From Gammaproteobacteria bacterium (GTDB lineage: Bacteria > Pseudomonadota > Gammaproteobacteria > Natronospirales > REEB76), in NCBI GenBank assembly GCA_027315405.1, contig DAHUYB010000071.1, positions 19,336 to 83,335 of the forward strand: a stretch of DNA of 64,000 bases, written 5' to 3'. Below, in pieces: positions 18,301-20,890 of this stretch; position 1 is the stretch's first letter, and each line of letters starts with the position of its first letter. The translations under genes were made by a program, and so were the position numbers. The notes beneath the pieces were generated by a model that saw only the letters and a list, made by a program, of their open reading frames with translations, did no database searches and had not been told where the DNA came from.

Positions 18301-20609
18301 CGCGGGCTTCCGGAACCTCGCTGGCCCAGACGACCACCTACACCCGTGATCCAACTTCCAATCTTGTGACCTCATCTGTTGATGCGCTTGGCCGCACCAC
18401 CAACTTCGGCTACAACAGCATGGGCGACTTGACCAGCCTGACGTATCTCGCCGGCACCTCCAATGCCGTGACCTACAGCTTCGCGTTCAATGCCTCATTC
18501 AACGAGCTCACCGGCATCACTGACCCGTTGGGACACACAACTACCTACGGCTATGACAGTCTGGGCGATCTCACCAGCATCAAGAACGGCTTGAACACCA
18601 CGATTGCCACGATCACCTACAACACTGCCACCGGACTGCCCATCAAGATCACCGACGCCCTCGGCCATGCGCTCACACTGGGTTATACGGGTAGTGATCT
18701 CACCTCGGTTACCGATGCTTTGGGCCGCACCAGCACGCGCTATGTGGATTCCATCGGCCGGGTCATCAGCCTGCTGGACCCGCTGGGCAACCGCACGCTG
18801 TATGGTTACGATCCCATGAACCGGGTGACCTCCATTACGGATTCGTTTGGCGCGCTGACCACGCTCGCCTACGACCCGGACGGCAACCTGACTTCGGTGA
18901 CCGACGCCCGCGGCGGCAAGACCCAGTTCGGCTATGACAACATGGATCGGGAGACCTCGCGCACCGACGCGCTCGGCCAGACCGAGACCTTCGGCTACGA
19001 TCTCGATAATAACCTCACCGGTCACACGGATCGCAAGGGCCAGAGCCAGGTGTTGAGTTACGATACGCTGAATCGTCTCATCCAGGTGACCTACAAGACG
19101 GCGGGCGGTTCGACGGAAAGCACGGTGGCTTACAACTACGACGCCGGCAACCGGGTAACCAGTGTGAATGATTCAGTGGGCGGTATATTGACGGAAAACT
19201 ACGACGGCCTGGACCGCCTTACCAGCGAGACCTCTCCCCAGGGCAGCGTAAGCTACCAGTACGATGCCGCGAGCCGCCGCACGCAGATGACGGTGGCGGG
19301 GCAGAGCGCCGTCATTTACGGCTACGATAATGCCAACCGGCTGTTGTCCATCAGCCAGAGCAGCCAGAGCGTGGCGATTACCTACGACAATGCCAGCCGG
19401 CGCAGCACGCTGACCCTGCCGAATGGGATTAAACTGAGTTATGGGTATGACAATGCCAACGAGATTACGGGGCTTACCTATAAGCTCGGCACCAACACCG
19501 TGGGCAACCTTACCTATGGCTACAATGCGGATGGCGAAATCGCCAGCCGCGGCGGGAGCCTGGACGTGACCAACCTGCCGGCAGCACTAGCGAGCGCCAG
19601 CTATAACGCCAATAATCGGCTCACCAACTGGGGCAGCACCACGCTCTCCTATGACGCCGACGGCAATCTCACCGGCGACGGGACCAACAGTTATACCTGG
19701 AACACCCGCAACCAGTTGACCGGCATCAGTGGCGGCACCACGGCGAGCTTTGTGTATGACGCGCTGGGCAGGCGTGAGAGCAAGACCATCGGCAGCACCA
19801 GCACCAACTTCCTCTACGATGGCCTGAATATCGAGCAGGAGCTGAACGGCACCACGCCGACGGTGAACTACCTGACCGGAGCCGGAATAGACGAAACCCT
19901 GAGCCGCACCGACAGCGGCGGAACCGAAAATTATCTCACCGACAATCTCGGCTCGACATTGGCGCTGACGAATTCTGCGGGAGCCATCAGCACCAGTTAC
20001 AGCTATGAGCCGTATGGCAACACCACCGCGAGTGGTACGAGCAGTACGAATGCAATTCAGTACACCGGCCGGGAGAATGACGGGGATGGTTTGTATTACT
20101 ATCGGGCGAGGTATTACAGTCCAACTTACAGCAGGTTTATCAGCAGTGACCCCATCGGCCTCGCTGGTGGGATTAACACCTATGCGTATGTGGTTAATGA
20201 TCCAATCAACCTTACAGATCAAACAGGACTGACAACTCTTCAAATTGGCCTCGCCTTAAATTTTCAAATTGGTCCACTCAATTTTAATGGCACTGTAGGG
20301 ATCGTTGTTGATTCACATGGTAATGTCGGTACATACAGGGTAGAAGGAGCAGGCGCTGGTGCCGGAGCAGATGCATTTGGCGGACTCAATTTTGCTATCT
20401 CTTCTGGGAACTGTATCCAAGATATTGGCGGTCTTTTCGGGAATACAAGCAGCAAAATTGGGGATGTGGTAGCCGGAGGAGTTGATGCGTTTACAGGGCA
20501 GGGCTCTCATGGACAACTAGTTGTTGGAGGAGGATTTTCAATAGGTATAGGTGCAGGAGCGGATTACTCCGTAGGAGGTTCTGAAACTCAGGTCACACCG
20601 CTATGGTAG
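15378..20609 (+). CDS. Sec-signal Kelch / Ig-like / CarboxypepD_reg-like / RHS-repeat polymorphic toxin
   Basis: ATGA overlap with the upstream gene and signal peptide MIGLAVAVAFTQA. Kelch-like repeats include LLPDGTWLLLGG, LLPDGQVFIFGG and VLTDGLVLFAGG. A carboxypeptidase-regulatory-like segment reads VAVSIGNLQTVTDAAGRFLVANIPAG. The Rhs N-terminal plug-like motif is GDPVDCTTGLFTYSHVDLQLP, followed by dozens of YD repeats (YxYDxxGNL). The core-end motif YYYRARYYSPTYSRFISSDPIGLAGGINTYAYV precedes a 125-aa C-terminal domain. Confidence 0.92.
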   Translation: MRQFMNGIVMIGLAVAVAFTQAANLSNSQASQYSLQLLTTAIGQTATLLPDGTWLLLGGEVNGQKSGTAIIDDPTTGKQTRLSTSLIVPRAWHTATLLPDGQVFIFGGVGADDQLVNQAELYNPVTRSFSLAPATGLTLRSHHTTNVLTDGLVLFAGGAEFAPAQLWDPRTNQVTVVVNDMVVPRADGWSTLLSTSPVLIWGGTDSSGAPISSAELYVPSLDQFVPAEISSALLPPVPDLTAALTVAESIPSDGATDVPVSAQIAVRFSERLKVTTLNNSTVTLIGPAGQVAATVVPAEAGMLLFVTPEQQLLPASYYTLFISGATDSEGTVLPFVALGFETAALSAGASTTAAAGLNTPGTISVVRAPLPPSVGVWQPSISDYGGNWFMGPATKTPQANVPMLQAAPGVTALAGQVLLQNGAPLPGVAVSIGNLQTVTDAAGRFLVANIPAGHVEFIVNGRTANTAGIQFGQFVIGADVAPGITTTLGYTVWMPVIDTAHAVNIPSPTTQEVDVTSPLLPGVVLKIPAGVVIREPNGKIVTQVSLTPVPLDRSPFPLPNFAMYFVIQPGGAIIDSVNTGVRPSAQIVYPNSLNSRPGTSSTFMYYDPSGPGWIPYGHGHVSKAGDRIVPDSDVRLYSFSGFGDTESENPPAPVNPPVNDCSSGGDPVDCTTGLFTYSHVDLQLPDTIPITIERNYVSSDIYPRQFGAGFSDPYGMYLYTPNGPTDTTFTTLYLALPNGSLVQYTRTSGSSATGLVGLQMAASNTPSRYYGSTISYDGNYNYLVLALKDGTQYKFNAGDGRWLRQIVSRNGQTLQIVPALPDSTGDNYPAIKIISPNGRWVQIQYVSSNPIQYPQGTSMIASITDDSGRSLNYAYDSSNRLIKVTYPDGGVEQYTYNGTTDEIASIIPPNGQTQVTNTYDGNGRVIQQTLADGGTYQFAYVTNGNGQVTQTTVTDPNGNVRILNFNSAGYVTSETRASGTSLAQTTTYTRDPTSNLVTSSVDALGRTTNFGYNSMGDLTSLTYLAGTSNAVTYSFAFNASFNELTGITDPLGHTTTYGYDSLGDLTSIKNGLNTTIATITYNTATGLPIKITDALGHALTLGYTGSDLTSVTDALGRTSTRYVDSIGRVISLLDPLGNRTLYGYDPMNRVTSITDSFGALTTLAYDPDGNLTSVTDARGGKTQFGYDNMDRETSRTDALGQTETFGYDLDNNLTGHTDRKGQSQVLSYDTLNRLIQVTYKTAGGSTESTVAYNYDAGNRVTSVNDSVGGILTENYDGLDRLTSETSPQGSVSYQYDAASRRTQMTVAGQSAVIYGYDNANRLLSISQSSQSVAITYDNASRRSTLTLPNGIKLSYGYDNANEITGLTYKLGTNTVGNLTYGYNADGEIASRGGSLDVTNLPAALASASYNANNRLTNWGSTTLSYDADGNLTGDGTNSYTWNTRNQLTGISGGTTASFVYDALGRRESKTIGSTSTNFLYDGLNIEQELNGTTPTVNYLTGAGIDETLSRTDSGGTENYLTDNLGSTLALTNSAGAISTSYSYEPYGNTTASGTSSTNAIQYTGRENDGDGLYYYRARYYSPTYSRFISSDPIGLAGGINTYAYVVNDPINLTDQTGLTTLQIGLALNFQIGPLNFNGTVGIVVDSHGNVGTYRVEGAGAGAGADAFGGLNFAISSGNCIQDIGGLFGNTSSKIGDVVAGGVDAFTGQGSHGQLVVGGGFSIGIGAGADYSVGGSETQVTPLW
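20232..20606 (+). other. Variable C-terminal toxin domain of the Rhs protein (glycine-rich, unrecognised family)
   Basis: The last 125 aa after DPIGL...LTDQTGL read TTLQIGLALNFQIGPLNF...GAGAGAGADAFGGLNF...VVGGGFSIGIGAGADYSV. There are few charged residues and no catalytic-looking motif. GC drops to about 42% on a sampled line, against about 60% in the repeat region. Confidence 0.7.
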
Positions 20610-20890
20610 GGTTAAATACTAAGCGCAAACAAGTCGTTGTCGGAGTACTTTACTTGGCTACTCTTTTTTTGATGATGGCCGTTCGACAGTACTACACTTG
20701 GTATATGCCTGAATCCCCTGAGATTACGTCGGGAAAGACAATTGCCGTCCTCGTCAACTATGGGAAGATTGTTTATGTGACACCGTTAGAGCAAATATAT
20801 CTATATGCTAGTTACGTTATCATTGGGGTGCAATTTATTGTTGTCGTTATCGTCTATATAATTACGCACAGGGGACGCAGCGCCTCATAG
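20603..20890 (+). CDS. Putative cognate immunity protein, small 2-TM membrane protein
   Basis: The ATG overlaps the Rhs stop (ATGGTAG). The 95-aa product has two hydrophobic helices (VVVGVLYLATLFLMMAV and ASYVIIGVQFIVVVIVYII) and low GC (35-50% on sampled lines). Its position immediately 3' of the Rhs C-terminal domain fits an immunity role. Confidence 0.7.
   Translation: MVGLNTKRKQVVVGVLYLATLFLMMAVRQYYTWYMPESPEITSGKTIAVLVNYGKIVYVTPLEQIYLYASYVIIGVQFIVVVIVYIITHRGRSAS

Follow-up and report, generated by a model that had tools for sequence, protein, structure and literature searches.

Rhs, CDI and T6SS/T7SS toxins are a main source of new antibacterial activities, and β-pore-forming toxins (β-PFTs) of the aerolysin/alpha-haemolysin type are large multidomain proteins with one or two hairpins per protomer. 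The C-terminal domain of the Rhs protein Tse5 of Pseudomonas aeruginosa (Tse5-CT) depolarizes target cells, and its immunity protein Tsi5, which has two predicted transmembrane (TM) regions, resides in the cytoplasmic membrane (PMC9637101). Glycine-zipper toxins that depolarize membranes include the S. aureus T7SS toxins EsxX and TspA and, in Caulobacter, CdzC/CdzD (PMC12744356, PMC5380434). VapA is a Gly-rich eight-stranded beta-barrel protein that permeabilizes membranes to protons (PMC10100859, PMC4118825), and the strands of the Vap barrel are ordered b1-b2-b3-b8-b5-b6-b7-b4, with a helix between b4 and b5.

The locus described here lies in a window of 64,000 nucleotides, which is the whole stretch of DNA that was analyzed. 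It encodes an Rhs protein with a glycine-rich C-terminal domain (CT) and, overlapping it, a small membrane protein that is its candidate immunity partner (Table 1).

Table 1. Features of the Rhs locus (nucleotide positions refer to the window; aa, residues of the encoded protein)
Feature	Position	Strand	Details
Two upstream genes	9908..15381	+	overlapping stop/start codons
First upstream gene		+	secreted protein, 1447 aa: one YD repeat, IPT/TIG repeats, PPC domain
Second upstream gene		+	376 aa, di-haem cytochrome c peroxidase/MauG-like
Rhs/YD-repeat polymorphic toxin gene	15378..20609	+	1743 aa; Pfam and NCBIfam scans
Rhs-associated core-end domain	20004..20231	+	aa 1543-1618; NCBIfam TIGR03696 (Rhs_assc_core), E=7e-24
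Low-GC island	20201..20890	.	lowest GC in 64-kb window
Glycine-rich C-terminal domain (CT)	20232..20606	+	125 aa, aa 1619-1743; Rhs stop TAG 20607-20609
Overlap of immunity ATG (20603) and Rhs stop TAG (20607-20609)	20603..20609	+	7 nt
Cognate immunity candidate	20603..20890	+	95 aa; two TM helices, ~aa 10-27 and 64-88
Predicted CT strands and helix			CT aa 2-13, 16-27, 32-45, 48-57, 67-78, 80-90, 96-108, 111-123; short helix aa 62-65

The Rhs carrier and the cassette boundaries

In the Rhs protein, Kelch, Big_5, CarboxypepD_reg and DUF6531 domains come in that order and are followed by 14 RHS repeats, the core end and the CT; Pfam recognizes DUF6531 and the RHS repeats (PF05593, 14 stretches, E=3.6e-74). 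Its N-terminus (MRQFMNGIVMIGLAVAVAFTQA) looks like a Sec signal peptide. T6SS-delivered Rhs effectors are recognized by a PAAR/VgrG-binding N-terminus or by T6SS linkage, and neither was seen for the window Rhs: the domain scan gave no PAAR match in the protein, and the large ORFs scanned nearby included no T6SS gene, whether for PAAR, VgrG or another component. The two upstream genes probably belong to the same operon as the Rhs gene, because the three reading frames overlap at 14251 and 15378-15381.

Because the TIGR03696 match spans aa 1543-1618, the Rhs core end is placed at nt 20231, and the CT starts exactly where this match ends. The core-end domain terminates in ...DPIGLAGGINTYAYVVNDPINLTDQTGL, which is presumed, from known Rhs biology, to be the autoproteolytic release site. 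The first core-end motif (DPIGL) is present, and the second is DQTGL in place of the canonical DPxGL (Pro to Gln), so autoproteolysis is not guaranteed. All solved Rhs, TcC and teneurin chains in the PDB align with the window Rhs as far as the core end, past which they extend only in a few short overhangs (up to ~20 residues, and ~48 in one salivary-gland chain); the solved Tse5 chain likewise aligns only through the core end.

The CT (TTLQIGLALNF...EGAGAGAGADA...GGGFSIGIGAGA...TPLW) contains 30 Gly (24%), 12 Val, 11 Ala and 9 Ile, and only 10 of its 125 residues are charged (D/E/K/R), with two His and one Cys. The overlap with the downstream gene is 7 nt long, because the immunity ATG sits inside ...CTATGGTAG..., and it likely couples translation of the two genes; the same kind of overlap between CT stop and immunity start is found at homologous loci. 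GC content is 59.0% in the window, 57.7% (GC3 69%) in the Rhs body, 47.4% (GC3 30%) in the CT and 42.4% in the 95-aa ORF. When the 64 kb are scanned in intervals of 659 bp, the one that holds the CT and the ORF lies at the 0.08th percentile of GC, and the GC-poorest interval starts at 20201. To judge from its composition, this low-GC island marks a horizontally acquired toxin-immunity cassette.

Pairing with a family of membrane proteins

The CT and a homologous two-TM ORF lie side by side in nine independent loci, namely the window, L001, L002, L003, L004, L008 (on the same contig as L016), L013, L017 and, distantly, L018, and at all nine the ORF overlaps or abuts the CT. The two proteins also diverge together, CT/immunity identity dropping from 93.6%/87% in L013 to 48%/39% in L017. 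In L013, the same CT (93.6% identity) is carried by a different Rhs core. The immunity gene stands as an orphan in L005-L007, and in L003 it is intact although the CT is reduced to a truncated remnant. Downstream of one distant CT member, L019, there is no obvious small two-TM ORF. The locus combines features by which Rhs polymorphic toxin-immunity systems are recognized, namely a YD/RHS shell with a core end, an exchanged CT, and a co-varying downstream gene with orphans. Because the CT and the ORF adjoin in nine loci and orphan copies occur, the pair is, on this genomic evidence, a genuine toxin-immunity module.

The 95-aa ORF has hydrophobic segments with KD19 values up to 2.6 and belongs to a family of 59 relatives, 41 of which have two TM segments. 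Between the segments lies a conserved loop of ~36 aa, RQYYTWxMP...G(K/R)TIAVLVNYGKxVYVTxxE. Among the homologues, Lys and Arg are denser in the N-tail (K/R density 0.23) and the C-tail (0.30) than in the loop (0.13), where acidic residues are concentrated, so that the predicted topology is N-in/C-in with the conserved loop in the periplasm. The host, an uncultured Gram-negative and probably gammaproteobacterial organism of mine-drainage or soil origin known from a metagenome, is taken to be a diderm because its VIT1 protein clusters at 90% identity with proteins of Gammaproteobacteria MAGs. Most likely, the two-TM protein shields the producer from the CT.

These data agree with much of the earlier sequence-only reading of the window, which had noted 125 Gly-rich residues after the core-end motif (they start at aa 1619), an overlapping 95-aa ORF with two TM helices, and an Rhs CT that is exchanged horizontally together with a membrane-bound immunity protein, as the core swap in L013, the orphans in L005-L007 and the remnant in L003 now illustrate. 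The compositional break that it reported is real, but its figures were off, the CT having a GC content of 47.4% and not ~42%.

A large CT family

Profile searches place the CT in a family of at least 568 clusters (50% identity) at E<=1e-3, or 232 at E<=1e-10, almost every member of which forms the C-terminal end of an Rhs/YD protein: 121 of the 145 matches with a complete C-end finish within 20 aa of the protein C-terminus. A DPxG junction precedes the CT in 97 of 130 members examined, and RHS/YD-shell repeats are present in seven of ten scanned members that lack the canonical junction. The homologues are all metagenomic, with hosts among Proteobacteria, Myxococcota-type and other environmental MAGs. 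The sequence-only reading had not recognized the family of the CT, and the CT indeed has no match in Pfam, NCBIfam, PHROGs or PDB sequences. A match to a known enzymatic toxin family, which would have spoken against that reading, was sought by single sequence and by profile in Pfam, NCBIfam and the PDB, and no enzymatic family was matched. Among 64 members, the Pfam scan gave only two single chance matches (SBBP and COXG) at E<=0.1, so that the Pfam glycine-zipper, bacteriocin and colicin models are all unmatched; for the window CT itself, no glycine-zipper, colicin or bacteriocin family was reached at E<=1. As far as these matches indicate, the CT is a member of a real, sizeable and uncurated family. 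On average, Gly makes up 25% of a member, charged residues 6.6%, and His and Cys together 1.6%.

Predicted fold of the CT

AlphaFold2, run with an alignment of 64 homologues, gives an all-beta model of the CT (pLDDT 93.5, pTM 0.82) with eight long antiparallel beta-strands and one short helix. MI-APC covariation in the family recovers the hairpins b1-b2, b2-b3, b5-b6 and b6-b7, with weak signals for b3-b8 and b4-b7. Hydrophobicity alternates strictly along the strands with period 2, giving one aliphatic face and another of Gly/Ser/Thr/Asn that is almost uncharged, and the spacing of conserved glycines is dominated by 2 and its multiples, not by 4. The family is predicted to fold into a compact all-beta domain of eight strands, which could be a barrel or a sandwich.

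In a Foldseek search of the PDB, the best match by probability (0.98) was VapG of Rhodococcus equi, and this match is weak (TM 0.40-0.43, rmsd 6.5 A, E=0.017). No outer-membrane protein (OMP) structure was among the top 50 matches. OmpX/OmpA-like eight-strand transmembrane barrels are recognized by such a fold match, by aromatic girdles and by a C-terminal beta-signal; here the FWY content is only 9%, and the C-terminus of the CT, ...ETQVTPLW, is by sequence reading at odds with an alternating hydrophobic beta-signal.

Proposed mode of action and alternatives

The reading preferred here, which has about an even chance of being correct, is that the locus encodes a Sec-exported Rhs cassette whose all-beta CT acts at the envelope by non-enzymatic membrane permeabilization and is neutralized by the two-TM immunity protein. 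The CT would be enclosed in the Rhs shell and released by (auto)cleavage at the core-end motif. It probably acts at the envelope, from the periplasmic side, because the immunity protein is predicted to expose its conserved loop to the periplasm. Its most likely mode of action would be non-enzymatic, by inserting into or perturbing the cytoplasmic membrane and so dissipating ion gradients. A monomeric eight-strand barrel normally has no conducting lumen, and therefore oligomerization of the CT or perturbation of the lipids must be postulated. The immunity protein would sit in the inner membrane with its N- and C-termini on the cytoplasmic side, and its periplasmic loop, probably a beta-hairpin, might capture the CT, perhaps by strand pairing, before insertion or oligomerization. 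It is reasonable to infer that the CT is pore-forming or membrane-targeting, mainly from the predicted periplasmic position of the immunity loop and the uncharged, Gly-rich strand faces.

The alternative that survives best, although it is rather unlikely, is that the CT works in the periplasm through conserved Asp/Ser/Thr residues, as an enzyme or by binding an envelope precursor tightly (an activity directed at peptidoglycan or lipid-II, for example), and is blocked by the immunity loop. Enzymes and lipid-II binders do occur among small beta-rich domains, as in the catalytic domain of colicin M and in lactococcin 972, and membrane-anchored immunity proteins, such as that for colicin M, protect against periplasmic enzymes too. 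The predicted periplasmic position of the immunity loop also fits this alternative. Across 127 diverse members, D27 (99%), D64 (84%), D85 (74%, with a further 12% Glu, or 86% acidic), S57 (95%) and T119 (100%) are highly conserved and could form an active or ligand-binding site. The sequence-only reading had seen no His/Asp/Glu/Cys catalytic pattern, which holds for His and Cys but not for Asp, three of which are conserved family-wide. Against an enzyme or binder, however, the conserved positions are mostly glycines, His, Cys, Lys and Arg are unconserved, the Pfam, NCBIfam and PDB searches returned no enzymatic family, and D27 and D85 lie at matching strand ends in the two half-domains, a placement that points to a structural role in turns.

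Cytoplasmic toxins are nearly always paired with soluble cytoplasmic immunity proteins, which counts against the improbable scheme in which the CT acts on some target in the cytoplasm and the small membrane protein blocks its import through the inner membrane. Inner-membrane proteins are needed for the entry of many Rhs/CDI toxins (PMC11630599), but the CT has only 125 aa, lacks a separate entry domain, and showed no similarity to nucleases, NADases, ADP-ribosyltransferases or deaminases in the Pfam, NCBIfam and PDB searches.

Still less probable is a helical glycine-zipper ionophore like EsxX/TspA, CdzC/D or Tse5-CT, in which GxxxG-packed helices would span the membrane. The high Gly/Ala/Ile content, one literal GxxxGxxxG (aa 101-109) and an immunity protein embedded in the membrane, as in Tse5/Tsi5, agree with such an ionophore, which is the "glycine-zipper type" that had been suggested from the sequence. 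This suggestion is not supported, since no segment of the CT reaches the hydrophobicity of a TM helix (maximum KD19 1.21), the glycines have period 2, the AlphaFold2 model is confidently all-beta, covariation supports hairpins, and no Pfam glycine-zipper model was matched in the 64 members (E<=0.1). Hardly credible is the view that the CT is a structural or adhesive extension, for which Gly-rich beta structure might be suitable, followed by an unrelated membrane-protein gene, because the CT directly follows the core-end domain, breaks with the Rhs body in composition, is exchanged between Rhs cores and is strictly accompanied by the two-TM ORF in nine loci, and because orphan immunity genes and truncated CTs occur, all of which typifies polymorphic toxin cassettes.

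Comparison with known systems

For the proposed membrane permeabilization by the CT, Tse5 (RhsP1)/Tsi5 appears to be the best functional analogue: both toxins are Rhs cargo without a recognizable enzymatic motif, and both immunity proteins have two predicted TM regions. However, Tse5 is linked to T6SS and PAAR, whereas the window Rhs carries an apparent Sec-type signal peptide, and for Tse5-CT the prediction is insertion by way of TM and amphipathic helices, whereas the window CT is predicted to be all-beta. CDI ionophores (CdiA-CT with polytopic CdiI) likewise have integral-membrane immunity proteins, and toxin and immunity diverge together (PMC11630599), but they are five-helix bundles with a separate receptor-binding entry domain and delivery by CdiA, unlike a single all-beta domain on an Rhs protein. 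EsxX/TspA and CdzC/CdzD are also Gly-rich, non-enzymatic interbacterial toxins with membrane-embedded immunity; they and the Pfam glycine-zippers differ in their helical (G/A/S)xxxG packing from the CT, in which glycines have period 2 on predicted strands. With β-PFTs, the CT shares amphipathic beta-hairpins of alternating aliphatic and small uncharged polar residues, and Foldseek and PDB-sequence searches found no fold or sequence match to them. The membrane-depolarizing toxins compared here (Tse5, EsxX and CDI ionophores) are described or predicted as helical. The CT family is widespread, confidently predicted to be all-beta, without a close solved relative, and served by a dedicated family of membrane immunity proteins. 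If the CT is membrane-active, it would show a structurally new way in which bacteria can be killed from the periplasmic side, in an experimentally tractable pair of 125 and 95 aa; if it is instead a periplasmic enzyme or binder, it would still be a new toxin family deserving a curated model.

In its predicted architecture, the CT is most reminiscent of the Vap proteins of Rhodococcus (Prescottella) equi (PF05526, R_equi_Vir). These share with it a size of ~110-125 aa, eight antiparallel strands with one short helix separating strands 4 and 5, Gly-rich strands whose surface carries few side chains, signs of a division into two four-strand halves, and often a C-terminal Trp. Membership of the Vap family was rejected, because PF05526 matched none of the 64 CT members and hhalign comparisons were not significant (E=0.23 with 6 Vaps, E=0.032 with 34 Vaps, probability <=1.6%). 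Vaps, moreover, serve an actinomycete as virulence factors that are secreted or displayed on the surface, stand alone and lack an immunity partner, and they contain 16% Gly and 12.5% charged residues, as against the 25% and 6.6% of the CT family. On the predicted model, the resemblance is therefore one of fold class, not of membership. It is doubtful, but conceivable, that the CT family is the first all-beta, Gly-rich, membrane-permeabilizing Rhs cargo, a small barrel that would enter or oligomerize in the cytoplasmic membrane of the target from the periplasm, be blocked by a beta-hairpin loop of the two-TM immunity protein, and be a distant relative of the Vap proteins. If this distant kinship were true, the long-unexplained mechanism of the Vaps would be tied to an interbacterial toxin fold. 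A membrane-active CT might also illuminate how Gly-rich beta-barrels such as VapA permeabilize membranes.

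Rhs protein and its C-terminal tail

The candidate toxin domain forms the end of a 1743-aa Rhs protein in which Pfam recognizes Kelch, Big_5, CarboxypepD_reg-like and DUF6531 domains and 14 RHS repeats. Because the core-end domain (Rhs-associated, TIGR03696 of NCBIfam, E=7e-24) spans aa 1543-1618, the toxin-bearing tail (CT) is assigned to the residues that follow it, TTLQIGLALNFQIGPLNFNGTVGIVVDSHGNVGTYRVEGAGAGAGADAFGGLNFAISSGNCIQDIGGLFGNTSSKIGDVVAGGVDAFTGQGSHGQLVVGGGFSIGIGAGADYSVGGSETQVTPLW, and the interval proposed for the tail by the sequence-only reading proves to be exact. 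Glycine accounts for 30 of the 125 residues and D, E, K and R together for only 10, and no 19-residue window exceeds 1.21 in Kyte-Doolittle hydropathy. The second core-end motif reads DQTGL where DPxGL is usual, so that autocleavage of this protein should not be assumed. Solved structures of Rhs, TcC and teneurin proteins, including Tse5, TccC3, Tre23 and Tse15, align with it essentially only to the core end (the overhang is at most about 20 residues in a few alignments and about 48 in one salivary-gland chain), and none of the aligned chains spans the CT.

The Rhs protein carries a probable Sec-type signal peptide, as read from its sequence; Pfam detects no PAAR domain in it, and no T6SS genes were found among the neighboring large ORFs that were scanned. 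Of the two genes upstream, one encodes a 1447-aa protein that has a signal peptide, a single YD repeat, IPT/TIG repeats and PPC domains, and the other a MauG-like di-haem cytochrome c peroxidase; judging from the overlapping stop and start codons, all three genes appear to form an operon. A YD- and TIG-containing protein similar to the 1447-aa one also adjoins the related Rhs gene of L019, a metagenomic locus with a distant CT member (7156-8280), and proteins of this type may serve Sec-dependent Rhs toxins as accessory or secretion partners. The 1593-aa Rhs protein of L008 (3241-8022), which has a CT of the same family, lists Peptidase_C39 first among its precomputed matches, a hint that the same toxin may be exported there by another route.

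Features of the toxin-immunity region and related loci (coordinates within the window)
Feature	Location	Strand	Remarks
Upstream gene pair	9908-15381	+	Stop and start codons overlap, including with the Rhs gene
Rhs protein gene	15378-20609	+	ORF of 1743 aa
CT (toxin-bearing tail)	20232-20606 (aa 1619-1743)	+	Starts after the end of TIGR03696
Immunity ORF	20603-20890	+	95 aa; start within CTATGGTAG; 7-nt overlap with the Rhs stop codon
CT with two-TM ORF	L001, L002, L003, L004
CT with two-TM ORF	L008		Same contig as L016; Deltaproteobacteria MAG
CT with two-TM ORF	L013
CT with two-TM ORF	L017		Desulfobacteraceae MAG
CT with two-TM ORF	L018		Marginal sequence similarity, same architecture; CT only 45% identical to the window CT

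Probable toxin-immunity cassette

The small ORF at the end of the Rhs gene encodes two strongly hydrophobic segments. Neither Pfam nor PHROGs has a family for it, and the top-scoring hits are chance-level ones to TM segments; the 59 clusters retrieved by its profile all lack Pfam domains. In all examined related loci with enough sequence, the CT is overlapped or immediately followed by a homologous ORF, except in L019, where no obvious partner ORF is seen. These partners share two TM segments and the loop motif RQYYTWxMP...G(R/K)TIAVLVNYGKxVYVTxxE, which supports the earlier suggestion of a membrane immunity protein beside the toxin. Two of the related MAG loci were found by a search with a narrow alignment. 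Identity to the window pair falls in step for CT and immunity protein, from 93.6% and 87% in L013 through 67% and 42% in L001 to 48% and 39% in L017.

Three classic signatures mark the pair as a polymorphic toxin-immunity cassette: a near-identical pair stands behind a different Rhs core sequence in L013; L005-L007 (L005, 5847-8288) have an orphan immunity gene that shares 81% identity with the window ORF, lacks a CT and adjoins an IS256-type transposase gene (PF00872); and in L003 the CT is truncated at its 5′-end while the immunity gene is intact. The CT and the small ORF thus very probably constitute such a cassette.

Several of these loci have features of their own. The orphan immunity gene of L005-L007 lies downstream of the gene for an unrelated 2927-aa Rhs protein that has a 192-aa partner of its own. 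In L003 (478-1912), the truncated CT is preceded by three paralogous ORFs of 101, 162 and 147 aa without Pfam matches; these come after another Rhs tail, which has a DPxG junction and a Gly-rich hydrophobic segment, and the group looks like an orphan toxin-immunity array. The CT homologue of L004 (P0002; 241-771) leaves the family alignment past position 111, probably by a frameshift or assembly error of the metagenomic contig, and the immunity ORF starts inside it. In L018, KwaA/KwaB (Kiwa defence) genes and IS fragments (1-1212) immediately precede the distant CT member, and the cassette there is within a defence or mobile island.

A compositional break at the tail had also been described, and the measured values confirm it: the Rhs body has a GC content of 57.7% (GC3 69%), which drops to 47.4% (GC3 30%) across the tail and to 42.4% across the small ORF. 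The 42% quoted for the tail was a little low. The 659-bp interval of tail and small ORF is essentially the lowest-GC stretch in the 64-kb window, and the rest of that observation is confirmed. Searches by tblastn detect no extra CT or immunity copies within the window, and neither a terminator nor a convincing promoter was found around the cassette. The window is chromosomal, as shown by its genes for VIT1 and M13 and M61 peptidases as well as an AddAB/RecBCD-like helicase-nuclease pair (1571-7658, +; PD-(D/E)XK and UvrD domains), which resembles ordinary housekeeping genes.

The immunity gene is followed, after about 160 bp, by the gene for a 240-aa IS200-like Y1 tyrosine transposase (PF01797; 21052-21774, +), and the spacer between them contains three tandem copies of a (T)CAGCGAAACCTCAG-like unit at 11 bp spacing (20956-20992). 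A Y1_Tnp gene also lies downstream of the homologous cassette in L008 (8741-9658), which may be coincidence or a recurrent association with a RAYT-like gene. Just past the cassette, in a region of mixed GC, a 512-aa Fic/DOC-domain protein is encoded (21969-23507, +), which may belong to the same mobile or defence island.

CT family

Only four relatives of the CT, all metagenomic and all after an Rhs DPxGL junction, are returned by a word-indexed search, but the tiny family that this implies is overturned when 1.84 billion cluster representatives are searched exhaustively with a HMMER profile: 568 proteins score E≤1e-3, of which 232 reach E≤1e-10 and 10 reach E≤1e-30. Among the best 150, the CT ends within 20 residues of the C-terminus in 121 of 145 members with a complete C-end, and a DPxG junction precedes it in 97 of 130 members examined; RHS or teneurin-type YD-shell repeats are still present in seven of ten scanned members without the junction. 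Source annotations name these proteins only as 'RHS repeat-associated protein'.

The window CT has no match at E≤1 in Pfam, NCBIfam or PHROGs and none among PDB sequences beyond one adhesin at E=0.99; 64 diverse members give no meaningful Pfam match, and their profile retrieves nothing from PDB sequences. The claim of an unrecognized toxin family is borne out. In the libraries and literature covered by the searches, neither the CT family nor the immunity family appears to have been described.

Conserved positions across 127 members are mostly glycines, together with T2, D27 (99%), Y35, S57, D64, F69, D85 and T119; no His or Cys is conserved. Charged residues make up 6.6% of the domain, with a net charge of about -4.

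Predicted fold of the CT

With five sequences, AlphaFold2 gives a model (pLDDT 77.7) from which fold searching is uninformative, and with 64 homologues pLDDT rises to 93.5 (pTM 0.82). The latter model predicts eight strands (b1-b8; aa 2-13, 16-27, 32-45, 48-57, about 67-78, 80-90, 96-108 and 111-123) with a short helix between b4 and b5 (62-65). The beta structure is backed by three independent checks. Strict period-2 alternation of aliphatic residues (mean KD +2 to +4) with almost uncharged Gly/Ser/Thr/Asn/Gln positions is found in all eight strands across the family, conserved glycines are mostly spaced by 2 and its multiples, and MI-APC covariation recovers the b1-b2, b2-b3, b5-b6 and b6-b7 hairpins (top pair 21-37). 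Because model and checks agree, the helical picture behind the glycine-zipper type proposed by the sequence-only reading is not supported.

Comparison of the N- and C-half profiles yields only a 13-column match between the b3-b4 and b7-b8 hairpins (E=0.003), and D27 and D85 occupy equivalent positions in the two halves. These features hint at a 4+4 internal duplication, which is suggestive rather than established.

Foldseek with this model finds no match at E<1e-3 in the PDB or BFVD. In the PDB, Rhodococcus equi VapG ranks highest by probability (0.98; TM 0.40/0.43, rmsd 6.5 Å, 119 columns). Vap proteins fold into eight-stranded barrels of pseudo-twofold symmetry in which a helix lies between b4 and b5; their glycine-rich strands create a 'bald' surface that binds detergent, and a C-terminal Trp is conserved (PMC4118825). 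VapA permeabilizes membranes so that proton gradients collapse (PMC10100859). The likeness to the modeled CT in its eight strands, b4-b5 helix and glycine-rich strand faces is attractive, and weak covariation between b3 and b8 and between b4 and b7 fits either a Vap-like strand order or simple core packing. Membership of the Vap family nevertheless fails at the sequence level (PF05526 matches none of the 64 members; comparison by hhalign with six R. equi Vaps yields E=0.23, and with an alignment of 34 Vap sequences assembled for this test E=0.032 at 1.6% probability), and homology is unproven. GFP-type barrels, next in rank (TM about 0.3), are generic beta matches, and the only BFVD match, an uncharacterized lymphocystis virus protein (TM 0.47), is not interpretable. 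An OMP-like transmembrane barrel is rejected, with no OMP in the top 50 Foldseek matches, an FWY content of only 9% and a C-terminus that, as read from the sequence, departs from the alternating hydrophobic beta-signal.

Probable site and mode of action

The host is diderm, its VIT1 sharing a 90%-identity cluster with proteins of MAGs labeled Gammaproteobacteria; the sequence is found in mine-drainage and soil metagenomes. Among the 41 immunity homologues with two TM segments, the loop is poorer in K/R (density 0.13) than the N-tail (0.23) or the C-tail (0.30), and acidic residues are concentrated in it. By the positive-inside rule, this pattern predicts that both termini are cytoplasmic and that the conserved loop, which contains VLVNYGKIVYVT and may form a beta-hairpin, is periplasmic. 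Because the neutralizing element is predicted to face the periplasm, the toxin probably acts at the envelope.

The CT would then permeabilize or depolarize the cytoplasmic membrane non-enzymatically, and capture of the CT by the immunity loop would block this action. Such a mode is preferred because of the predicted periplasmic loop, the lack of an enzymatic signature, the near-uncharged domain, the glycine-rich strand faces and the precedent of Tse5/Tsi5. The main rival, a periplasmic enzyme or precursor binder that would work through the conserved Asp, Ser and Thr residues, accommodates a periplasmic site of neutralization and is the less likely reading. That the CT is membrane-active has nearly an even chance of being correct; pore formation is plausible but unproven, and the earlier interpretation as a whole is partly supported.

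The type of system to which the pair belongs, the Rhs toxin-immunity cassette, is well known. Tse5-CT, an Rhs pore former, is countered by Tsi5, an immunity protein with two predicted TM regions (PMC9637101), and the window pair likewise combines an Rhs cargo with an immunity protein of two TM regions. The predicted all-beta, glycine-rich fold of the CT, however, sets it apart from known helical membrane toxins.
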